The notes under the pieces are model-generated. The model searched no databases, was not told where the DNA came from, and was given only the letters and a program-made list of their open reading frames with translations. From an uncultured Nitrospirales bacterium (GTDB lineage: Bacteria > Hydrogenedentota > Hydrogenedentia > Hydrogenedentales > CAILVY01), in assembly GCA_964474205.1 (NCBI GenBank), contig CAYYRW010000037.1:5599-69598 (forward strand): a stretch of DNA of 64,000 nucleotides, read 5' to 3'. Position 1 is the first letter of the stretch, and each line of letters begins with the position of its first letter. Positions 4,380 through 15,344 of the stretch are shown here, piece by piece. The position numbers and the translations under genes are program-made.

Positions 4380-5159
4380 TCAAATGTTGTGCTTCATAAA
4401 TTCCAGACTAATGCGGAGGTCGTCAAATATGTCGCCTTCGCAATTATCCTGCTCATAGACATACCATTCGACGCCCGCTTCTTCCGCGGCCGCGAATATG
4501 CCGTCCCAGGGCAGTACACCGCTGCCTATGGGGCAGAATTTGTGTTGGCCGGGCTTATTTTTTTTGGACACGTCCTTCACATGAATAACCGGACAGCGGT
4601 TGGCGTATTTGCGCAGGTAATCAATCTCCTCCACCCCGCCAAGATGCAACCAAGCCAGGTCAAATTCACAGTACAGGTTCTTGGGCGAGGTGCTTTCGTA
4701 CAAAATATCCAGTTTCGTGCGCGGATCCTCCGGGAATTTCTCCAATTCATGCGCATGGTTGTGATACGAAAGGCGCATGCCGGCGGCGGCCAGTTTCGCG
4801 CCCAAGGCGTCCAGGCGGGCCGCGCCGCGTTTCCAGTCCTCGAGTGTCTTGGTGCAATCCCCCATCATGCCGCCCGGCGCGACATCTTTCGCCCCGACGG
4901 TTTGCCAAAATTTCACTTGGGCGTCAAAATCCTTTTCAAAGTCTTCCACCCCGACGTGGGCGGCAATCGCTTTCAAGCCGGCCTTGTCGAGCGCCGCCTT
5001 AATTTCCTCCGCGGTCAGATTGGGCATGCCGCTCCATTGCACAAACTCATACCCGATGTCACGGGCCCGTTTCAGGGTTTCCTCCAGGTTCTTCTTTGCC
5101 GGTTCGCGCACGGTGTACAATTGCAGCGCGATTCTCGGATGGGGTTTGCCATTGCTCAT
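4380..5159 (-). CDS. sugar phosphate isomerase/epimerase (xylose-isomerase-like TIM barrel)
   Basis: 259 aa; AP-endonuclease-2/xylose isomerase-like TIM barrel pattern (IALQLYTVRE..., HNHAHE, EYEQD). Confidence 0.75.
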   Translation of the reverse strand: MSNGKPHPRIALQLYTVREPAKKNLEETLKRARDIGYEFVQWSGMPNLTAEEIKAALDKAGLKAIAAHVGVEDFEKDFDAQVKFWQTVGAKDVAPGGMMGDCTKTLEDWKRGAARLDALGAKLAAAGMRLSYHNHAHELEKFPEDPRTKLDILYESTSPKNLYCEFDLAWLHLGGVEEIDYLRKYANRCPVIHVKDVSKKNKPGQHKFCPIGSGVLPWDGIFAAAEEAGVEWYVYEQDNCEGDIFDDLRISLEFMKHNI

Positions 5160-5236
5160 GTCCTATCTCCCAGTGCTCATGGTTGAATGTTGATGCGCCG
5201 TTATTCTAACAGGTTCAGAAAATGTTTTCATACCAC

Positions 5237-5434
5237 TATAGCGCGCGTAGTTGCGCCGGGGATGGTGCACCTAATCCCCCAACGGGGCAACCGGCGGTTG
5301 CCCACTTTTTTCTGTGGTGACGATTATGGCGTCTACTTGGATTTGTTGGCGGAATGGTGTGGGCACCGTCACGTGAACATCTGGGGGTGGTGTTTGATGC
5401 CTAATCATAGGCGCTGCTTCCCCGCGGCTGTGGA
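5237..5434 (+). mobile_element. decayed 5' fragment of IS200-like/RAYT (COG1943) transposase gene, repeat copy A
   Basis: ORF 5187-5453 encodes ...VHLIPQRGNRRLPTFFCGDDYGVYLDLLAEWCGHRHVNIWGWCLMPNH, matching the RAYT N-terminus up to the first His of the HUH motif, then diverges/stops; nearly identical to 6162-6359. Confidence 0.7.
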
Positions 5435-5478
5435 AGTTCAGTCTTCGATTTAGACGTTCTGGCGTCAGGAATAACATT

Positions 5479-5553
5479 TTTTGTGTTCTTTGTGATCTCT
5501 TCGGGCAAGGCCCCGGAATATTGGCCACAAAGAACGCATAGACCACAAAGAAA
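5479..5553. repeat. left imperfect inverted-repeat arm flanking GxxExxY gene (tgtgttctttgtg ... ccggaatattggccacaaagaacgcatagaccacaaag)
   Basis: Reverse-complement partner at 6017-6080 (ttctttgtgatctttgtgttctatgcggccaatattccg ... acacaaagaacgcaaag). Confidence 0.55.
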
Positions 5554-5633
5554 GTTTTTGTGATTTATGATCACTTTGTGGTTATATGGTTTGTGCGTTG
5601 AACATCAATCATCAACTGTGAGGAGATTAGGCC

Positions 5634-6026
5634 ATGGATATGAAAGCGTTGTGTGATCAGGTGAGGCAAACATCGTATGACATTCATGCCTATCACGGGC
5701 ATGGCCACCTTGAAAAAGTGTATGAGAATGCTTTGGCGCATCGTCTGAAGAAAATTGGGTTAAAGGCCGAACAGCAGCATCCAATTGATGTCTATGATGA
5801 GGACGGGACGCTTCTTGGGGAATTTTTTGCTGATCTGTTGGCGGAGGGAGAGCTGGTCATCGAACTCAAAGCAGTTAAAGCATTTGCCCCCGAGCACGAA
5901 GCCCAGATTCTCGGGTATTTGAAATCGTCCCGGAAGGAACACGGGTTACTGATAAACTTCGGTTCGTATAAATTTGAAATCCGCAAATACATCAGGAGTG
6001 TTAATCAAAAAGAAATTTCTTTGTGA
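5634..6026 (+). CDS. GxxExxY family protein (PD-(D/E)XK nuclease superfamily, TIGR04256-like)
   Basis: 130 aa; LLGEFFADLLAEGELVIELKAV ... HEAQILGYLKSSRKEHGLLINFG matches the characteristic C-terminal signature of GxxExxY proteins. Confidence 0.75.
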   Translation: MDMKALCDQVRQTSYDIHAYHGHGHLEKVYENALAHRLKKIGLKAEQQHPIDVYDEDGTLLGEFFADLLAEGELVIELKAVKAFAPEHEAQILGYLKSSRKEHGLLINFGSYKFEIRKYIRSVNQKEISL

Positions 6027-6080
6027 TCTTTGTGTTCTATGCGGCCAATATTCCGTAATTGTAACACAAAGAACGCAAAG
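6017..6080. repeat. right imperfect inverted-repeat arm flanking GxxExxY gene
   Basis: Contains ggccaatattccg and cacaaagaacgca, reverse complements of motifs at 5516-5540. Confidence 0.55.
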
Positions 6081-6085
6081 ATAGC

Positions 6086-6359
6086 ATCTCGGAAATCCGG
6101 GGACACCTTACTGAAATAGTATTTTCCCGCTGACTTTTATGCATTTTTCTGGCAGGACACGTATAGCGCGCGTAGTTGCGCCGGGGATGGTGCACCTAAT
6201 CCCCCAACGGGACAACCGGCGGTTAACCACTTTTTTCTGTGGTGACGATTATGCCGTCTACTTGGATTTATTGGCGGAATGGTGTGGGCACCGTCACGTG
6301 AACATCTGGGGGTGGTGTTTGATGCCTAATCATAGGCGCTGCTTCCCCGCGGCTGTGGA
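6086..6359 (+). mobile_element. decayed 5' region + N-terminal fragment of IS200-like/RAYT transposase gene, repeat copy B (longest copy)
   Basis: ORF 6139-6426 encodes the same RAYT N-terminus (…CLMPNHRRCFPAAV) then diverges; upstream 75 bp (ggaaatccggggacacc…cttttatgcatttttctggc) shared with copy C. Confidence 0.7.
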
Positions 6360-6909
6360 CGCACAACCGGGGCGCAGGGTACCTCCGAAGAAACCGGGGC
6401 ACAAGGGTCCAAGAAAGCCAAATTAAATATACGGTCCCCGGAATACCCCGACCCGGGCTTCAGATTGAGCACCGCTTCCAATGCCCGGGGCATGAGTTCC
6501 TCGCGCAGTTTGGGAATGAGCGATACCTGCTGGGTAATGTCGGGGGCTGCCGCAACCGGAACAGTAACCGGAGCCGGAGGCGGTGTGCCTGCAGACTGCG
6601 GTGCTTCCGTTCCGGCCACCCAGGAAGCGGCGTTCTTCAGGCCGCCCCCGATGCCGCCGGCCACGTCGCCCACGTCCTTGAGCGCGCCACATCTCGCTAA
6701 AAAAAGCCGTGCGCCAGCAGATGGAATCTTGTATAATTGTTGCTGAAACCGGCGGTAACAGCGCCCAAACAACACAGCGGAGGTTTTGTAATGAGGGAAG
6801 TGCCGGAACGTTACGAAGTCGAATGTAATCAAGAAGTTGATTTCGTGGTTCCCATGAAACGATAATCTACCGTACAATCGCAAACAGCGGAACAAAGGAG
6901 GTTCATATA

Positions 6910-7368
6910 ATGTCAAGTGCGTTAGCATCTTCGCAGCCATCCCAGGTTCTTCGTGCTGTTGATGCGGACCTGCCGTTTCTGGCCTCAGAAGCGGCTATTG
7001 ATCTCGACAACTTGCATTCAGGCACCTACACCGAAGTGGATGCGGTACGGCGCTTAGCGGAGCGGCTCAAGAATTCGGTGCCGAGTCGATACGATCCTGC
7101 AAACAAGCGCGTTTTGGACCCTGCAACACTCATCGTCCTTGGGGAGGCCGTAACAGTCTCGTTGTGGAACGAGGAATCTCCGCAAAAGGTGGATGAATTA
7201 CTCGCTAAAGCTGCCGAGATCGCCGATTTCTTGTCGGGAGATGAACTAACCAAGAATCCGGAACAGCTCAATAGTGCTCGTAACTTTTGTGTTGCTCTGT
7301 CACGAGCGGCACTAGCTTATCGGAAATCCCTTCGTGACTTGCGCCCACCGCACCCCTTTCGGAGGTAG
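6910..7368 (+). CDS. hypothetical protein (first gene of lower-GC three-gene operon)
   Basis: 152-aa ORF with strong SD (aaaggagg) 8 nt upstream; stop TAG 7366-7368 two nt before next ATG; no recognisable motif. Confidence 0.6.
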   Translation: MSSALASSQPSQVLRAVDADLPFLASEAAIDLDNLHSGTYTEVDAVRRLAERLKNSVPSRYDPANKRVLDPATLIVLGEAVTVSLWNEESPQKVDELLAKAAEIADFLSGDELTKNPEQLNSARNFCVALSRAALAYRKSLRDLRPPHPFRR

Positions 7369-7370
7369 TC

Positions 7371-8612
7371 ATGGTCACAGTTGAGTATGCGCGGGCTCGC
7401 ATCATGTCTGCCATAGATGAAATTGAGCGGCTCAAGCATTCCGAATTCCCCGACGATCATTCGCGTCAAGCGATATGCCTTCTGGAAAATCTATTCCGAG
7501 AGCGAAGTAGGGTTTTGTCAAGGATCACTGACACAACCGACCCCGAGGTGGCAAACAACGAGTGCAGCGTTTCGCTCGAGTTGCTCTTCGTATTTGTCCC
7601 AATCATGGGCTTTGTATTACGCTCGACAAACGTACGGAACGCGTTCGAAGCCTATTCGCCATTATTACGTCTCGCCAAGAGCCTTATGGGTGTCGACACG
7701 AAGCTCGTCGTGTCATCGGAATGGGAGTTTTCGCCCATTACTTACGTTTCGGGTACAACTCTACCCGGCTTCGTTCTCATTGGTTTGCCTGCAACTGAAT
7801 CCTCAAATCCCTTGATTGTACCGTTAGCCGGACATGAACTTGGGCATTCCGTTTGGGAAGTCGAAGGAGTTGGACAGAAATTCGAAGACAGGATTCGCCA
7901 AGGGGTAGTGGATGAACTAACGGGAAAGCGGTGGGCTGACTACACGGCACTCTACCCACAATATAAAAAAGACGACATTGAAACCAATTTGTTCTGCCGA
8001 TCTACATGGGAACCTGCATACACTTGGTCGATGTTGCAAGCGGAGGAGATCTTTTGCGACTTCTTCGGTCTTCGCTTGTTTGCCGAGTCATATCTGCACG
8101 CCTTTGCTTATCTCCTTGCACCAGGCACGTCAAGTCAACGTTCTGTGAAGTACCCAAATATTAGGCGCCGCATATCGCATATTGTCTTAGCAGCCAAAAA
8201 ACTCAACGTGACGGTTCCCAGCGCCTTTGTGAACAGTTTCGTAGTTGAGTCAGAACCGACAGAACCCAGAACAGCTTTACTCGTTTCCGTTGCCGATTTT
8301 GCATCCGAACTCCTTGTGGAGGAGTTGCTCGACGAGGCCCGAAGTTTTGCAGATGGTCATTCCATTGCCCAACGCGATTCTGCACGAGTCACAAATATCG
8401 CCGGCCAGTTCACAAAATGGGTTGTTCCGTCTGCTTCTCACGAGGCGCTCGTCAATATTCTGAATGCCGGATGGAACTGCAATCTTGATCCCAAGCTTTG
8501 GTTGAATGTTCCGCAACTCAAAAGCGAGGACCGCGTTCGCGTCTTGCGAGACCTAATGCTAAAGAGCATGGAAGTGGCAGAGATACAAATCCGGTTGGGG
8601 AACGCGTCATGA
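7371..8612 (+). CDS. HExxH zinc-metallopeptidase-like protein (ImmA/IrrE- or SprT-like motif LAGHELGHSVW)
   Basis: 413 aa; single HExxH (HELGH) with downstream acidic candidate third ligand (QAEEIFCDFFG); stop TGA overlaps next gene start (ATGA at 8609-8612). Confidence 0.55.
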   Translation: MVTVEYARARIMSAIDEIERLKHSEFPDDHSRQAICLLENLFRERSRVLSRITDTTDPEVANNECSVSLELLFVFVPIMGFVLRSTNVRNAFEAYSPLLRLAKSLMGVDTKLVVSSEWEFSPITYVSGTTLPGFVLIGLPATESSNPLIVPLAGHELGHSVWEVEGVGQKFEDRIRQGVVDELTGKRWADYTALYPQYKKDDIETNLFCRSTWEPAYTWSMLQAEEIFCDFFGLRLFAESYLHAFAYLLAPGTSSQRSVKYPNIRRRISHIVLAAKKLNVTVPSAFVNSFVVESEPTEPRTALLVSVADFASELLVEELLDEARSFADGHSIAQRDSARVTNIAGQFTKWVVPSASHEALVNILNAGWNCNLDPKLWLNVPQLKSEDRVRVLRDLMLKSMEVAEIQIRLGNAS

Positions 8613-9223
8613 TTCTTAAAGCCGACAAGATCGCGCAGGAGTTGAGGACGCCGTCAAATCCAGAGGATCCCTTAGTCATTACTCCACAGCCTGACTTGGA
8701 GTCTCTGAAGAAATCCGGCGCGGCATCTATCGATATTCGCTTGGGATGTTGGTTCTTGGCGTGTCGAACGAGTCGTACGGGGGGGTTGGATGTCTACGAA
8801 AAAGATAGCGTTACGCCCAATGAAGCCCAACTCACCAAGGGAAGCTATGTCCGATATGGCGAAGGATTTGTTTTGCATCCACGTTCGTTTGTTCTTGGTG
8901 TTACCATGGAGTGGATCCGATTGCCAGCGAATCTGGCAGCGTATGTCATCGGGCGATCCTCATGGGGGCGTCATGGGTTGATCATTGCGACAGCTACGGG
9001 AGTTCACCCCGGCTTCACGGGGTGTTTGACTCTTGAGCTATCCAATGTGGGTGAAATTCCGATCAAGGTGAAGCCGGGAACAACCATTTGCCAATTGTTC
9101 ATTCACCATGTGGACAGTGGAGATCCCAAGCTCGTTGACCGTAGCACCTTTGTTGGGCGAAGAAAGCCTACGCTTGGTTCGATTACCCTAGACGACATTG
9201 CCAAACAATTGGCCGGAACGTGA
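8609..9223 (+). CDS. dCTP deaminase / dUTPase-fold (Dcd-like) protein
   Basis: 204 aa from ATG 8609; MILKADKI..., GRSSWGRHGL, TGVHPGFTGCLTLELSNVGEIPIKVKPGTTICQL match the Dcd signature (GRSS.GR.GL ... G.ITLEL.N.G..PI.L.PG..I.QL) including the catalytic Glu context. Confidence 0.8.
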   Translation: MILKADKIAQELRTPSNPEDPLVITPQPDLESLKKSGAASIDIRLGCWFLACRTSRTGGLDVYEKDSVTPNEAQLTKGSYVRYGEGFVLHPRSFVLGVTMEWIRLPANLAAYVIGRSSWGRHGLIIATATGVHPGFTGCLTLELSNVGEIPIKVKPGTTICQLFIHHVDSGDPKLVDRSTFVGRRKPTLGSITLDDIAKQLAGT

Positions 9224-9506
9224 CACCTGATACGACGTGCGTTGGGGCACATCGAAGTCTACAAAATCGCTCAACCGGCCAGCTATATAGACGCGCGTAA
9301 ATAAACCAACAATAACGGTTCACAAAAACGGTTTCATCAGGCCGAGAATATTTTCGGGGTTCTGCTGAATGTTGGCGAAAGTTGTGAACCGGCTCTGACA
9401 CAATTCCTCGGGAGTGTCGAAGTAGACATTGTGGGTTGACTCCATTCGCGTGTAATGCCATACCCATTCCACCGCGTTAAACTCCGGCGAGTAGGAAATC
9501 CGGGGG

Positions 9507-9675
9507 AAATCCGAGGACACCATGTAGAAATATTATTTTCCTGCGGACTTTTATGTATTTTTCTGGCGTGGCACATATAGCGCGCGTAGCCGCGCCGGGG
9601 AAAGCGCATCCTATCCCCCAACGGGGCAACCGGCGGTTGCCCGCTTTTTTCTGCGGTGACGATTATGGCGTCTAC
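9507..9675 (+). mobile_element. decayed RAYT 5' fragment, repeat copy C (shortest, most diverged)
   Basis: ggaaatccgaggacacc…tatagcgcgcgtagccgcgccgggg…caaccggcggttgcccgcttttttctgcggtgacgattatggcgtctac aligns with copies A/B; followed at ~9715-9750 by aattaaatata..cggaatac segment also present after copy B (~6420-6450). Confidence 0.6.
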
Positions 9676-9826
9676 AGAAATTGGGGTCCCACGGGTCCAT
9701 GGAAGCCGAATTAAATATAGTGCCTTCGGAATACGCCGGAATACTGAAAGTCGGGGGAGGCACGAGCGGGAGGGCAGGAGGGACAGATTATTGGACATTG
9801 GACGCGACACTTTATATGATTCGGTC

Positions 9827-11053
9827 ATGAGTAAAACTTCACGGATGATCTCTATATGTTATGGCTGCGGACAGGAGGCGCCGGTGGAGGCGGGGTTTGT
9901 TTGCGCGGGGTGCGGTGAACCGTGCAGTCTTCGTGTGGCGCGGACAATGCCGAGAGAAATGTTGCGGAAGGCGCCGCGGTCCCTATGGCATTACTTTGAT
10001 CTGTTGCCGGTGCAATCGCGGGAGCATGTGGTGAGTCTGGGGGAAGGCGCGACGCCGTTGGTGGCGGCATCCCGCTTGGCAAAACGTTTCGGTTTCGCGG
10101 AACTGCTGTTAAAGAATGAAATGGGCAATCCGACGGGGTCGTTCAAGGACCGGCAGATATCGGTGGGGATCAGTCATGCGCGGGAGATTGGGGCGGACAC
10201 GGTGGCGGTGGTGTCGTCGGGTAACGTGGCGGCGGCCACGGCGGCGTATGCGGCGCGCGCGGGGATGAAGGCGGTGGTGTTGATGCACGCGCACGCGGGG
10301 GCGGGAAAGATGGCCCAGGCGGCGGCGTATGGGGCCAAGGTGGTCCGGGTGGAATCGGATGCCCCAAGCGCTGTTTTCAACTTGTGTCTGGAGGCCTGCA
10401 AGCGTTGGGGCTGGTATCATCTCTCGACGGCGGGCATGTATGAGCCGTATAACGTGGAAGGGGCCAAAACCATCGCGTATGAATTGTATCAGCAATGCGG
10501 TGAAGTGTTGCCGGACTGCATTCTCGCGCCGGTGGGCGGAGGCGGACTTCTCGGCGGACTCTGGCGCGGTTTTTTGGATTTGCAGCGGTTGGGCGCCATT
10601 TCCCGCCTTCCGAAGCTTGTGGGAGTGCAAGCGTCCGGGTGTGCGCCGTTGCGGCAGGCCATCGAAAAAGGATGGTCGTTTCGAGAATCGTTGACGCATC
10701 CATGGCAGAATCCGAAAACCGTGGCGGGGGGCATTGCGGATGATATTCTCTTCGACGGGCATACCGCGCTTCCGGCCATTCGCGCCACCCAGGGTTCCGT
10801 TATCGCAGTGGATGATGATGCAATTATGGCGGGCCGCGATCTCCTTGCGCGCGAAGAAGGGCTTCTATGTGAACTGACGAGTGCCGTGGTGATTGCCGCG
10901 CTCTCGAAGGTTTCCCCGATGCCGTCTGACGCCCGGGCAGGCTGTCTGCTCACCGGCAACGGCATCAAGGAGACCGGGCTGCTGACGGCCAACGCTTCCG
11001 CATTCCCCGCCATTCCCCCGGACGTATCCTCTCTTGCACGGATTCTTGCGTGA
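9827..11053 (+). CDS. thrC: threonine synthase
   Basis: PLP-lysine motif GNPTGSFKDR, N-terminal Cys4 zinc-ribbon (CYGCG…CAGCG) typical of ThrC; start chosen at ATG 9827 (MSKTSRMISICYGCG); the longer ORF from 9656 overlaps repeat copy C. Confidence 0.85.
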   Translation: MSKTSRMISICYGCGQEAPVEAGFVCAGCGEPCSLRVARTMPREMLRKAPRSLWHYFDLLPVQSREHVVSLGEGATPLVAASRLAKRFGFAELLLKNEMGNPTGSFKDRQISVGISHAREIGADTVAVVSSGNVAAATAAYAARAGMKAVVLMHAHAGAGKMAQAAAYGAKVVRVESDAPSAVFNLCLEACKRWGWYHLSTAGMYEPYNVEGAKTIAYELYQQCGEVLPDCILAPVGGGGLLGGLWRGFLDLQRLGAISRLPKLVGVQASGCAPLRQAIEKGWSFRESLTHPWQNPKTVAGGIADDILFDGHTALPAIRATQGSVIAVDDDAIMAGRDLLAREEGLLCELTSAVVIAALSKVSPMPSDARAGCLLTGNGIKETGLLTANASAFPAIPPDVSSLARILA

Positions 11054-11480
11054 GCCTGTTGCCGTGTGTCCATGGGTGTAATTTTTGTGGTCCACAGATT
11101 ACACAGATTTACACAGATTTTTTGCAAGTTAAATCATGTTATCGGTATCGTTATCGCTATCGTTATCGAACCCTGTTCTTGCTCATTTCTTATTCCGTGT
11201 AAATTAAGCCCATCCGCGTCATCAGCGTTCTGTTTACTGATTTCGGCTGGATTTTGCCGAAAACCATAGCATTTCCCAGTATTCACACTGGCTTGAGGAT
11301 TTACCGCTGGGGTATACTTTCCGTGGATGCGTTGAGGAAACGTGCCCACGGGCACATGCCTGAAATGGGATTGTTTCAGGAACGAAACATTCCACGGGAA
11401 ATGAATGTCTAGTTGTGGAGTTCAAAGTGAAGGGGCCAAGAGCATAAACCGAAGTGGCGTAGTATCAGGAGAGGTCAGTA

Positions 11481-14400
11481 ATGAAGTGCAGAATCATGAA
11501 AAAACAATGCATGGGTATGGTGTTGCTTTGCGCCGTGATTATCGGAGCGGCGGGCGGCACGGGCGCGGAAGTTACGGCGATTCCGCGCGTGTTGTTGGTG
11601 GGCGATAGCTGGTCCGGATTCACCCAAGCCTTCAAAAGCTACGACGCGGCGTTCGCCGCGATGCCGGAACTGGCGAAGTATCGCCAGATCGGGTACATGA
11701 CGGCGATCATGGGCGGGCGCGCGAGCGAATTGAACACGCCCACGATGCTTGGGTACATTTCGAGCGAACTGGACAAGTATCCGACCCTGGACATTGTTCA
11801 TTTGAGCCTTGGGGGCAACGATGTGCTCTGGAGCGATGGCTGGCATCCCTGGATGACGCCGCAGCAAGTGCAGGCGCTGTGGGATAATGTCATTGCGAAT
11901 ATTCAGGCGGTGGTGGACCTCATTCTCGCGAAACGCCCGGACATCCGCATTTACATCTGCGGGTATGACTATGCCAATCATGAAAAAGACAATGCCACCA
12001 CCCGTCAGTTGAATGATGCCTTTGTCAGCCTCGAGTTGGCCAAGCGCAATTTCTTTTCCCAGCCGCAATTCAATAACCGCGTGTTTTATGTCCACAATTT
12101 CGGCATGATGCAATGGACCTATGGGGATGCCGAACCGGTCAATGGCCTTCCCGGCTATGCCGCGCACACCGTTCCGCTGCCCGGGGATTATCCCGCGTAT
12201 GATCCGTGGCCCGGCGGCAATCCCGATTACAATTCCCCCCTCGAAGCCTTGATTGATCTGGACATTCACCTCACGCGCGAGGGGTATCAAATTTTGATTC
12301 AACGGTGCATCGATCAATTTGCCGCCACCTGGCTGAGCTATCCGCGGGTGATCGAAATCCTGCCGTTGGACGGAAAAGCGGCTGAGGCCCAATTCCAGGT
12401 TACGTTCAGCGAAGACGTGACGGGAGTGGACGAAACGGACTTCACCGCCGCGTCGGCCAAGATGACCCACCCAATTATCTCGGTAACCGGTTCCGGCTCT
12501 GTGTATACGGTGACCACGGGCGCTTCCGGTGCCACAAGCCCGGTGACGCTTACAGTCATCGATGATGGCTCCATCCTGGATGGCGACAGCCATCCGCTCC
12601 AAGGGGAACTGGACGGCGGGTATGCGGTGAACGGTCCGTTGTTCTATGATAATCCACAGCCCCCCGCGTCCGATGATTTCGAGGCCGCGCTCCGCTTTTT
12701 CAACATTGCCACCGGCCCTTACCAGGAATTCCTGGGCGGATTCAGTTTCAATCCGGCGGTGTGCGACTCGAATGGCGGCATTTCCAGCATTGATCCGCTG
12801 GTGATCAATGGCAATGGCTTGTTGGACAGTTTCGAGTTCGCGGTCATCAAGCGGTGCCTGGATGACGACACGCTGGACCTGAGCGCGACGGGCGGCGTCA
12901 CCCACAGCATTGTGCAAGACGCCTGGGACAACAATTTCGCGCATATGACGGTTAATTGCGGCGGCGCGGACGGACTGCTGCAATTTGTGCTGCCGGGAAC
13001 GAATACGTTTCTTGCGGGGCTTATGACCCTCGGCGACACCCAATCCGCGGCGCTTCCGGTCATGTTGTTGACGGCACTCTGCGCGGTCCGCGAATTTCCT
13101 CCCTCGGTAACGCATGTGACCGCCCCCAACCAAAAGGATTACATCCTCTTGCCGCAATACCTGGGCTTGAATGGCGACGCCGATGGCGATGGATTCACCA
13201 ACCGCCAGGAATACACCTATTTTGCCCCGGGGGGGCGCGACGCCTATCTGGACGCCGTATTGAATCCCAACATTGTTCCGGAGATCACGGAAGGGGAAGG
13301 CGGTGGCGAAGGCGAAGGCACAACGGAAGGCGAAGGCGAACTGGAAGGGGAAGTGCCGGCAGCACTGGATTTCTGTGCCATCATGGATGAGATTTACGCC
13401 ACGACCCAATTGGAGGCGCTGGCGCCCCTCTTGGATTTATTGGGCGATGACGCCGCGCTCATCAGCCTTATCCAATGCGAAATCGCCGATCTGAATGGGC
13501 CGTTTGTGGACACTGATAACCCGCCGGACGGCAGCCCGGATATGCCGGGGCCCAACGGCCTGCTCGATGGCGCGTATGAATTGAACGTGATCGCGGAATT
13601 GATTAATAACGCGGACCGCTATTTGGAACTGCCCAGTGGAACGGCGATGGGCCAAGGGGATATCGGGGTAGACCCGGTGGCCGTGGCGTCCGCGTATGAA
13701 TTCAATTACAGCGCTTTATACAGCCCGTTGGAAGCCCTCCTGCCGGTGATACCGATCATCGTGCAGAATTTGGCGCATGTGACGCTTACGGAAGAGCAAA
13801 CGGATGAAATCCTCAGCCTCTTCCCGAATCTGCTGTCGATCCTCGCGGGGTATGCCACCCTGGGGGATAACGACTCGATTTCCGTCGTGTTGTTCCTCAC
13901 CAATCTGCTGCATGACTTCGCCCCCGCCCTGCCCACCACCGCGGATGGATTCATCACCTTGAACGGCATCTTGGGACCGAACGGAAACGCCGACGGCGAC
14001 GGATACACCAACCGCCAGGAATACAATTTCTTCGCCACGGAATTCATTGAGGAACCGGTCTGCAAGAAATGCGCAAAGACCTTTGATTGGACCGACCCCA
14101 AAACCTATATCCGTGCGGTCCTCAACCCGCGCATCAATCCCGGATTTCCCGACGGCATGCGCGACTTCTGCAAAACCATGGATGACATCTACGCCACCGC
14201 CCAATCGGATACGTTGGCGCCCCTGCTGGACTTGCTGGGCGATGACGCCGCGCTAATCTCACTGATTCTGTGCGATACGGCCGACCTGAACGGGCCGTTT
14301 GTCGATACCGATACCCCGCCCGATGGCAGCCCCGACATGCCGGGCCCCAATGGCCTGCTGGACGGGGCGTATGAATTGGGCGTGCTCGCGCGACTGATTA

Positions 14401-15344
14401 ATTTCCCAGGCTGGTATGCCGGTCTGGCAAGCGGCGCCTTGTCCGGGCAGGTGACCGCGGGCGTGGACGCCTCACTTGTGGGGCCGGCATTTGAGGCCAA
14501 TTACCTCGCGCTCTATGCGCCCCTGGAATCCCTATTGCCGGTATTGCCGATTATCGTGCAAAATCTGGCCCATATCACCTTGACCGAAGACCAGACCGAA
14601 GAAATCCTCAGCCTGTTCCCCAATCTTCTCTCCATTTTGGCGGGATATGCCACTTTAGGGGATGCGGATTCCTTGAGCGTGGTTCTCTTTCTCACAAATC
14701 TGCTCCACGACTTCGCCCCCGCGCTTCCCACCACCCCGGACGGTTTCGTTACCTTGGACGCCATTCTCGGCCCAGACGGCGATGCCGACGGGGATGGCTT
14801 CACCAACCGGCAGGAATACAACAGTGTTATTCCGCAAGACGCGCGCTCCTATGTGGCCGTCGCGTTGGACCCCAGCACCCATCAAACCCCGGGTGAAGGC
14901 GAGATGGAAGGCGAAGGCGCGGTCGAAGGCGAAGGCGCCATCGAGGGCGAAGGCGCCGTTGAAGGCGAAGGCGCCGTTGAAGGGGAAGGCGTTATCGAAG
15001 GAGAGGGCGCTGTCGAAGGGGAAGGCGCCGTCGAAGGCGATCTGCCGCCCCTCGAACATAGCGCGGACCCCGATGGCAATGGCATTATCAGCCTATCGGA
15101 ACTGCTGCGGGTCATTCAGTTCTTCAATTCCGGCGGGTTCCATTGTCAGGCCGGAACGGAAGACGGTTATGCGCCGGGAGCGGGCGATGAATCCTGCACC
15201 CCACACAGCAGCGATTATAATGAACAGGACTGGCACATAAATCTTTCTGAATTGCTGCGGCTGATTCAGTTCTTCAATTCCGGCGGCTATCATGCCTGTC
15301 CGGCGGAAAACACAGAAGACGGATTCTGCCCAGGCGTTGATTAA
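11481..15344 (+). CDS. giant secreted protein: N-terminal SGNH/GDSL-like hydrolase domain, three NGDADGDGFTNRQEY Ca-binding-like motifs, duplicated ~230-aa module, (EGEGAV)n spacer, C-terminal twin dockerin-like module
   Basis: 1287 aa; signal peptide; GDSWSG ... LSLGGNDVLW ... DxxH-like block; modules at ~13354-14030 and ~14160-14820 >70% identical; C-terminus DGNGIISLSELLRVIQFFNSGG…. Confidence 0.7.
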   Translation: MKCRIMKKQCMGMVLLCAVIIGAAGGTGAEVTAIPRVLLVGDSWSGFTQAFKSYDAAFAAMPELAKYRQIGYMTAIMGGRASELNTPTMLGYISSELDKYPTLDIVHLSLGGNDVLWSDGWHPWMTPQQVQALWDNVIANIQAVVDLILAKRPDIRIYICGYDYANHEKDNATTRQLNDAFVSLELAKRNFFSQPQFNNRVFYVHNFGMMQWTYGDAEPVNGLPGYAAHTVPLPGDYPAYDPWPGGNPDYNSPLEALIDLDIHLTREGYQILIQRCIDQFAATWLSYPRVIEILPLDGKAAEAQFQVTFSEDVTGVDETDFTAASAKMTHPIISVTGSGSVYTVTTGASGATSPVTLTVIDDGSILDGDSHPLQGELDGGYAVNGPLFYDNPQPPASDDFEAALRFFNIATGPYQEFLGGFSFNPAVCDSNGGISSIDPLVINGNGLLDSFEFAVIKRCLDDDTLDLSATGGVTHSIVQDAWDNNFAHMTVNCGGADGLLQFVLPGTNTFLAGLMTLGDTQSAALPVMLLTALCAVREFPPSVTHVTAPNQKDYILLPQYLGLNGDADGDGFTNRQEYTYFAPGGRDAYLDAVLNPNIVPEITEGEGGGEGEGTTEGEGELEGEVPAALDFCAIMDEIYATTQLEALAPLLDLLGDDAALISLIQCEIADLNGPFVDTDNPPDGSPDMPGPNGLLDGAYELNVIAELINNADRYLELPSGTAMGQGDIGVDPVAVASAYEFNYSALYSPLEALLPVIPIIVQNLAHVTLTEEQTDEILSLFPNLLSILAGYATLGDNDSISVVLFLTNLLHDFAPALPTTADGFITLNGILGPNGNADGDGYTNRQEYNFFATEFIEEPVCKKCAKTFDWTDPKTYIRAVLNPRINPGFPDGMRDFCKTMDDIYATAQSDTLAPLLDLLGDDAALISLILCDTADLNGPFVDTDTPPDGSPDMPGPNGLLDGAYELGVLARLINFPGWYAGLASGALSGQVTAGVDASLVGPAFEANYLALYAPLESLLPVLPIIVQNLAHITLTEDQTEEILSLFPNLLSILAGYATLGDADSLSVVLFLTNLLHDFAPALPTTPDGFVTLDAILGPDGDADGDGFTNRQEYNSVIPQDARSYVAVALDPSTHQTPGEGEMEGEGAVEGEGAIEGEGAVEGEGAVEGEGVIEGEGAVEGEGAVEGDLPPLEHSADPDGNGIISLSELLRVIQFFNSGGFHCQAGTEDGYAPGAGDESCTPHSSDYNEQDWHINLSELLRLIQFFNSGGYHACPAENTEDGFCPGVD
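14893..15040 (+). repeat. 18-bp tandem repeats (gaaggcgaaggcgccgtc-like) encoding (E-G-E-G-A-V/I)n
   Basis: about 8 in-frame units inside 11481-15344. Confidence 0.9.

Follow-up and report, generated by a model that had tools for sequence, protein, structure and literature searches.

The window analysed here, a stretch of 64,000 nucleotides (nt) of contig CAYYRW010000037.1 from an uncultured bacterium, carries a compact operon of three genes (g1, g2 and g3, together the trio), in which two uncharacterised helical proteins are joined to a variant of the dCTP deaminase (Dcd) fold, and which we consider below as a candidate mobile conflict module. The genes and their start signals are as follows:

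6837-6878, + strand: candidate sigma-70-like promoter, two overlapping weak matches upstream of g1, proposed from their position
6894-6901, + strand: predicted ribosome-binding site of g1, AAAGGAGG, 8 nt upstream of g1
6910-7368, + strand: g1, a 152-aa helical-bundle protein of an uncharacterised family
7371-8612, + strand: g2, a 413-aa mostly helical protein of an uncharacterised family with a predicted gluzincin-like metal site
8609-9223, + strand: g3, a 204-aa Dcd-fold (dUTPase-superfamily) predicted deaminase

At the first junction the TAG of g1 is separated by 2 nt from the ATG of g2, and at the second the TGA of g2 overlaps the ATG of g3 (ATGA). The GC content is 0.51 between 6700 and 9230 against 0.57 in the whole window, and GC at third codon positions (GC3) is 0.53 in the trio against 0.69 in 19 long reference open reading frames (ORFs), with every trio gene below all 19. 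Three coupled ORFs of lowered GC had already been described by the first-pass annotation, a model's reading of the letters, and all of this is present; its claim of rare codons was right only in part because ATA is not enriched, whereas TTA, which it had also named, is enriched 3-6-fold, as are CTA and AGG. Promoter-like matches are no more numerous in this region than would be expected from shuffling, and it is by position alone that the candidate promoter fits.

The same three genes recur in other genomes. When one genome from each of 185,579 species was scanned, at the sensitivity of a pattern scan, 80 loci were obtained, with g2 homologues of 30-72% identity, spread over at least 15 phyla; the hosts include Nitrospirota, Gemmatimonadota, Planctomycetota, Verrucomicrobiota, Acidobacteriota and Thermodesulfobacteriota, as well as Alpha- and Gammaproteobacteria, Actinomycetota, Chloroflexota, Armatimonadota, Bacteroidota and Patescibacteria. 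A Dcd homologue lies directly downstream of g2 in 77 of the 80 loci, the other three stopping at or just after g2, and a g1 homologue lies directly upstream in 76 (59 detected by tblastn and 17 by hidden Markov model). In most loci g2 and g3 overlap by 4 nt, g1 and g2 typically stand some 2 nt apart, and no fourth conserved gene was found around the trio among these loci. Furthermore, blastn of the window against its nearest relative, from a Nitrospiraceae metagenome-assembled genome (locus L009), gives homology over exactly 6896-9224, beginning at the g1 ribosome-binding site. The pairwise-identity matrices of g1, g2 and g3 correlate (rho 0.55-0.68), with evolution fastest in g1 (mean 28% identity), followed by g2 (39%) and g3 (54%). 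The trio is an obligate, co-transferred unit, and the region 6896-9224 is self-contained and horizontally acquired.

As had been supposed from the window alone, this architecture corresponds to no described system: neither g1 nor g2 has a match in Pfam, NCBIfam or PADLOC (E<=0.1 in all three for g2) or in PHROGs, and literature searches found no description of the trio. The "dUTPase" candidate of DefensePredictor was considered as the same system and set aside as different, being composed of a MazG-C kinase, a dUTPase and an aGPT-Pplase.

The trio is accessory, not housekeeping, because it is sporadic across phyla, its GC falls below that of the flanks in 61 of 66 loci (median -6.2 points, Wilcoxon p ~1e-10), and it is carried on conjugative plasmids, in a prophage region and on phage-plasmids. 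In Rhizobium, it is found on conjugative plasmids beside a Fic gene, an S8 and trypsin-like peptidase pair with an AAA ATPase, and an integrase; on one IMG/VR contig it follows directly after tape-measure and tail genes, a typical moron position; and on a metagenomic contig (L091) it stands between a cluster of TerB, BrxD-like and DEAD-helicase genes and a Wadjet-like four-gene cluster, the latter including a PIN gene and an N6 methyltransferase gene. No consistent tRNA integration site was detected, a tRNA lying within about 6 kb in 9 of 60 loci. In one lineage (L088 7663-11856), the trio is directly downstream of pyrG (CTP synthase) and kdsB, and the adjacency to pyrG may be a coincidence or a link to cytidine nucleotide metabolism. 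The first-pass annotation had allowed for a simple horizontally acquired housekeeping dcd; sporadic distribution, low GC and carriage on plasmids and in a prophage region speak otherwise. No second dcd or dut is present within the 64-kb window, a result that is uninformative on the rest of the genome.

The HExxH motif noted earlier in g2 is present, as HELGH at residues 155-159. Thirty-one residues are invariant in 70 full-length g2 homologues (identity down to 29%), and this set includes H155, E156 and H159 of the HExxH motif, carried by a predicted helix at 147-164, together with E226 and D230 of an ExxxD motif, carried by a second predicted helix at 207-249. This succession of HExxH and ExxxD marks the gluzincins, among them thermolysin and neprilysin, where the Glu provides a third ligand for the zinc and the first His is oriented by the Asp. 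By its motifs, g2 can be recognised as a new family with a predicted gluzincin-type HExxH...ExxxD site, and the invariance of these five residues in the 70 homologues indicates that the predicted active site is under selection. The same motifs are retained in the remote subtypes described below. A profile search of 1.84 billion representatives gave 1170 g2 clusters at 50% identity, the 150 best-scoring of which are mostly about 400-450 aa long, save a few shorter ones that are probably partial.

Structure prediction of g2 with AlphaFold gave a confident model (predicted local distance difference test score, pLDDT, 86.7; predicted template modelling score, pTM, 0.87) but no specific fold match. 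The model is nearly all-helical, with two short strands only (111-115 and 134-138) just before the HELGH helix, and the fold comparison returned generic helical bundles only. Sequence and profile searches of the PDB gave nothing meaningful, and Pfam searches at E<=10 with 21 g2 homologues gave scattered noise only, including one DUF2268 match at E 0.28. Like the gluzincins of clan MA(E), g2 has HExxH on one helix and ExxxD on a later one, both invariant, but it differs from them in having no detectable sequence or fold similarity to solved members and in the scarcity of beta-strands before the active-site helix. The resemblance to ImmA/IrrE, CapP or SprT peptidases suggested at first did not hold, no match to such proteins being found in Pfam, NCBIfam or PADLOC or among solved folds, and the motif pair indicates a generic gluzincin-type site instead of an ImmA/IrrE or SprT one. 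No known housekeeping peptidase family was matched by g2 either.

A remote second subtype was found by tblastn of g3 against plasmids, having been missed by tblastn of g2; the family of the window is hereafter subtype 1. In subtype 2, a small protein, a mid-size protein and a Dcd follow one another. The mid-size proteins have 347-386 aa and the motif YHELGH...E(Y/H)F(A/C)D, and their profile aligns with that of the g2 family in hhalign with a probability of 84% (E 8e-6, 253 columns), the shared motifs being colinear. This subtype is carried on P1-like phage-plasmids of Escherichia coli and Salmonella, on plasmids of Rhizobium, Shinella and Agrobacterium, and also occurs in Bradyrhizobium japonicum. 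Of 5426 complete E. coli genomes, 8 carry it, in every case on a 90-109-kb plasmid that also has P1-like genes (ref, ash, icd, mat, tail). The E. coli cassette lies downstream of the ash/icd region (icd/ant-like) and encodes proteins of 101 aa and 357 aa (HELGH...EYFAD) and a Dcd with Gln in motif III (L097 2605-4597; L099 12001-13993; for example, plasmid pIDPH8234-1, 12246-14238).

On the Rhizobium, Shinella and Agrobacterium plasmids, subtype 2 adjoins multiubiquitin-ThiF-DUF6527 genes and a SIR2 or AAA protein. On those of Rhizobium sp. CIAT894 and Agrobacterium fabrum (L098, L102), the cassette is directly downstream of the multiubiquitin-ThiF-DUF6527 cluster, and is followed by an AAA ATPase on one plasmid and by a SIR2 protein and a VapC toxin-antitoxin pair on the other. 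In Emticicia oligotrophica, the cassette is inserted into a type I restriction-modification operon on pEMTOL01 (L101 2600-4694), with hsdR on one side and hsdS/hsdM on the other. The cassette of a Bradyrhizobium quebecense plasmid (L094 3777-6708) is a third variant. A MerR-family regulator gene stands immediately upstream of it, its g2-like protein has 462 aa (AHEVGH...SELLAD), and its Dcd, of 237 aa, has an extended C-terminus and carries His in motif III; the 145-aa product of its first gene shows no detectable similarity to g1. No protein of subtype 2 or of the third variant was matched in PADLOC. Three of the five distinct subtype-2 contexts are clearly defence-rich, and they are richer than those of subtype 1. 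The association with defence islands is weak for the subtype of the window and clearer only for the remote second subtype.

By its sequence, g3 is a Dcd-family protein that keeps the predicted deamination residues. The Dcd signature read from the window was confirmed by Pfam PF22769 (E 5e-31), with DCD/dUTPase domains as the only Pfam domains, and by TIGR02274 (112.1 bits, against a curated cut-off of 92.8); g3 also matches phrog_1663. Its best relatives in the PDB are the Dcds of Mycobacterium tuberculosis and E. coli. The residues S117, R121 and E143 are invariant in 74 subtype-1 homologues and correspond to S111, R115 and E138 of E. coli Dcd, whose reference sequence was confirmed to be identical to 1XS1 and whose E138 is the residue mutated in 2V9X and 1XS4. 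With the housekeeping enzymes (E. coli 1XS1, M. tuberculosis 2QXX) g3 shares the fold, the GRSSxxRxG and TLELxN motifs and the catalytic Ser/Arg/Glu set, but it differs from them in three structural features and in being accessory, mobile and always in an operon with g1 and g2. First, the Asp of motif III (E. coli D128, in the "IDPG" motif), which we take to contact the deoxyribose 3'-OH in the dUTPase superfamily, is replaced, His133 occupying its position in the window. Second, the equivalent of E. coli His121 is deleted. Third, the last ~35 residues are unaligned to Dcd models: the TIGR02274 alignment ends at position 156 of 180 and the PDB alignments end at residues 164-171, without meeting the canonical C-terminal lid segment. 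The g3 clade has a conserved C-terminal motif of its own, GxRKPxLG.

The loss of the motif-III Asp follows the partners. Among the 74 homologues it is replaced by His in 69 and by Gln in 5, and is never Asp. In eight partner-linked Dcds outside this set, Gln is present in 5 of 5 from subtype 2, and also in the subtype-1 copies of a Rhizobium phaseoli plasmid and of the IMG/VR prophage region, and His is present in the B. quebecense variant. In contrast, stand-alone Dcds without partners keep the Asp, namely those of the E. coli chromosome, of M. tuberculosis, and of Priestia and Streptomyces plasmids. To judge from these replacements, the substrate or the regulation of g3 may differ from those of an ordinary Dcd; with the motif-III Asp and the His lost and the C-terminus unaligned, g3 may therefore not act on dCTP.

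These data bear on the possibility that the trio is an accessory cassette of nucleotide metabolism, in which a regulated dCTP deaminase would supply dUMP/dTTP precursors to the host or for the mobile element to replicate, and g1 and g2 would act in its assembly or control. The score of g3 above the NCBIfam equivalog cut-off for dCTP deaminase, with dcd as its name in PGAP, would suit such a role, as would the frequency of Dcd in phages (phrog_1663), the locus adjoining pyrG and the weak defence-island association of subtype 1. However, we regard it as quite improbable: the trio is present in only about 100 of the 185,579 species-representative genomes (at the sensitivity of a pattern scan), with clear horizontal transfer, every partner-linked Dcd checked is without the motif-III Asp that the partnerless plasmid and chromosomal enzymes keep, and a metalloprotease-like partner is without precedent in dTTP synthesis.

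The first protein of the trio, g1, has a conserved N-terminal motif (LDxDLPFLA) and a conserved, probably flexible C-terminal tail (RPxHPFRR). Its AlphaFold model (pLDDT 81) resembles generic helical bundles only in the PDB, where sequence and profile searches gave nothing meaningful, and no helix-turn-helix profile was matched that would make it a repressor of that kind. Paralogy of g1 with a part of g2 was ruled out, hhalign giving a probability of 1.5%. The tail LRPxHPFRR (residues 143-152) is loosely like RPYNRR (168-174) of E. coli Dcd, a segment without counterpart in g3, possibly by chance. The idea that this tail stands in for the missing Dcd lid was rejected as too speculative, because g3 retains its own conserved C-terminal motif.

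Deamination of dCTP is a proven anti-phage strategy (Tal et al.), and this precedent, which had been invoked for the trio from the window alone, stands for the function and falls for the enzyme, because the known defensive dCTP deaminase is not a Dcd: it is a single 576-aa protein with a zinc cytidine-deaminase domain and an N-terminal kinase domain (Tal et al.). The proposed outcome would be alike in the two cases, in that deoxycytidine nucleotides would be deaminated in the infected cell and phage DNA synthesis deprived of them, and both genes are horizontally mobile; on the other hand, the enzyme of the trio has the dUTPase-superfamily Dcd fold, with Ser/Arg/Glu chemistry and two obligate partners. 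In PADLOC, g3 was not matched by the "dCTPdeaminase" models. Nucleotide deamination is a known kind of defence; the novelty lies in the fold of the enzyme, in both partner families and in how the operon is built. With the CapH/CapP and ImmR/ImmA switches the trio shares the concept of an HExxH metallopeptidase placed as a switch beside an immune effector, but it is without an M78/ImmA domain, a helix-turn-helix partner or a PADLOC capP match, and g2 has another third-ligand motif and spacing (HExxH...ExxxD), a length of 413 aa and unique N- and C-terminal helical domains.

Kongming (KomABC) is a three-gene system in which a nucleotide deaminase makes a base-modified deoxynucleoside triphosphate (dNTP) signal. 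The trio is likewise a three-gene operon centred on a nucleotide deaminase, but both the adenosine deaminase and the NAD+-depleting effector complex of Kongming are absent from it. By analogy, g3 could make a deaminated nucleotide messenger (dUTP or other) from a pool boosted by the phage, and g2 could be a protease effector activated by that nucleotide. This precedent for a deaminase-made signal in three genes, the large and extremely conserved g2 that is always paired with the deaminase, and an altered nucleotide pocket in g3 that would suit a specialised substrate are in keeping with such signalling; yet dUTP is a normal metabolite removed by Dut, hence a poor signal, g2 has no recognised nucleotide-sensing domain, and no effector swapping is seen, in contrast to typical signalling systems. 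We give signalling of this kind little credence.

In the window, the trio stands between repeats derived from a transposase gene, as the first-pass annotation had reported and as the coordinates and the homology to PF01797 proteins bear out. The repeats and a further remnant are placed as follows:

5166-5434, + strand: repeat copy A, 97% identical to copy B over 198 nt
6091-6450, + strand: repeat copy B, bracketing the trio on its left and retaining the N-terminal part of an IS200/RAYT-like Y1 transposase gene
9505-9738, + strand: repeat copy C, right bracket of the trio, 84% identical to B and lacking 128 nt of its interior
9320-9523, - strand: putative remnant of the C-terminal end of an IS630-type DDE_3 transposase, 67 aa, directly downstream of g3 (PF13358, E 0.006)

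All three repeat copies are truncated, each derived from the N-terminal portion of the transposase gene, and are in direct orientation. Pfam, PDB and plasmid tblastn searches gave no transposase assignment for the repeat, which was then obtained by a homologue search, the repeat ORF being 58-66% identical to PF01797 proteins (IS200/RAYT-like Y1 transposase domain). The IS630-type match is weak, covering profile positions 114-145 of 146 of PF13358 at less than the gathering score. Inverted repeats of 46 nt (5514-5559 and 6010-6055, 85% complementary) flank a gene at 5634-6026 that belongs to PDDEXK_3 (PF13366). Because this gene sits between repeats A and B, the locus looks like two cassettes, the PDDEXK_3 gene and the trio, set apart by three copies of one repeat. 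An Rfam search of 4800-10200 found no RNA family, hence no AvcI-like small RNA antitoxin among the known families.

The pseudogenised transposase fragments and the insertion sequence remnant that flank the trio would also fit a decaying prophage or satellite remnant, functionless in the present genome. This is highly improbable: none of the three ORFs is broken, a ribosome-binding site precedes them and their junctions are coupled, all family-invariant residues are retained, and g2 of either subtype 1 or subtype 2 has no match in 50,697 phage genomes.

Downstream, an ORF of a PALP (pyridoxal phosphate-dependent) enzyme is listed at 9656-11053 (465 aa) with a GTG start within repeat C; the public gene call for it has 389 aa (L081 4651-5820), and the real start is probably near 9884. 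The 1287-aa protein encoded at 11481-15344 combines a GDSL-lipase domain with TSP3-like repeats and long acidic (GEGx)n repeats and contains a large internal duplication, and just upstream of it a tandem stretch at about 11150-11200 codes for short YR repeats.

Taken together, the trio is best read as an undescribed mobile conflict module, either anti-phage or addictive, whose effector would be the variant Dcd-fold deaminase under the control of g1 and g2, a reading that we hold to be evenly balanced between right and wrong. The mechanism that we infer is that of an abortive-infection-like anti-phage system or an addiction system. In this context, g3 would be the effector, a cytosine-nucleotide deaminase that retains the deamination residues and has lost the conserved sugar-binding Asp; g1 and g2 would hold it in check until a trigger makes them set it free or switch it on, plausibly because g2 cleaves g1 or one end of g3. 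Once active, g3 would turn dCTP, or a cytosine nucleotide akin to it, into the uracil form, leaving DNA replication short of dCTP and the cell flooded with dUTP. Even if the trio is a conflict module with a deaminase effector, this specific order of protease gating is doubtful.

Several observations count against a conflict module. Across the 80 loci, most immediate and second neighbours of the trio are ordinary housekeeping genes. A defence gene is adjacent in about 10% of loci (KwaB, type I, III and IV restriction-modification, HEC-06 and PDC-S66), which is about the background level (Tal et al.), and guilt by association is weak for subtype 1 because only about one locus in ten has a recognisable adjacent defence gene, although a few of its settings, such as the Rhizobium plasmids and L091, are clear islands. 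Moreover, g3 is without the Asp and the His conserved in both the E. coli and the M. tuberculosis Dcd and has a C-terminus that is unaligned to Dcd models. Since no solved metallopeptidase resembles g2 in fold or in sequence, it is by motifs alone that g2 is labelled a protease.

Stabilisation of mobile elements by addiction, in the manner of a toxin-antitoxin system, would make g3 (or g2) the toxin and g1 a labile antidote, with the cell killed after loss of the element. Indeed, the operon is compact and translationally coupled, it is carried on large conjugative plasmids and phage-plasmids, toxin-antitoxin genes (TumE, PIN, VapC, HigBA) often lie next to it, g1 evolves faster than its two partners, and many chromosomal copies stand alone among housekeeping genes. 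Nevertheless, three components including a highly conserved 413-aa protein would be unusual for a simple toxin-antitoxin pair, and several copies occupy loci typical of defence (inside a type I restriction-modification operon; the prophage moron position). We consider addiction as such unlikely, and it is not exclusive of a defence role, the two being compatible with each other.

If a deaminase-based conflict module is indeed present, the Dcd/dUTPase fold would be a second, structurally unrelated enzyme class in nucleotide-pool-based immunity, two new protein families would be defined (g1 and g2, the latter with ~1170 clusters at 50% identity), and a metalloprotease-like partner would be obligately tied to a nucleotide deaminase. 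A more far-reaching view, which we put forward tentatively and think rather doubtful, is that the trio of the window would be the first representative of an undescribed immune family that is widespread, counts more than 1000 clusters at 50% identity and is divided into two or more remote subtypes. The deaminase would have been re-tooled, with His or Gln in place of the sugar-binding Asp and with a new C-terminus, and its substrate would be something else than plain dCTP, such as phage-modified dCTP, a ribonucleotide or a nucleotide signal; a new family of gluzincin-like proteases would gate it through a small decoy or inhibitor protein. The confinement of the motif-III Asp loss to partner-linked Dcds offers a clean structure-function question, and the presence of a related cassette on E. 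coli P1-like phage-plasmids makes the system accessible in a native host species with standard coliphages.

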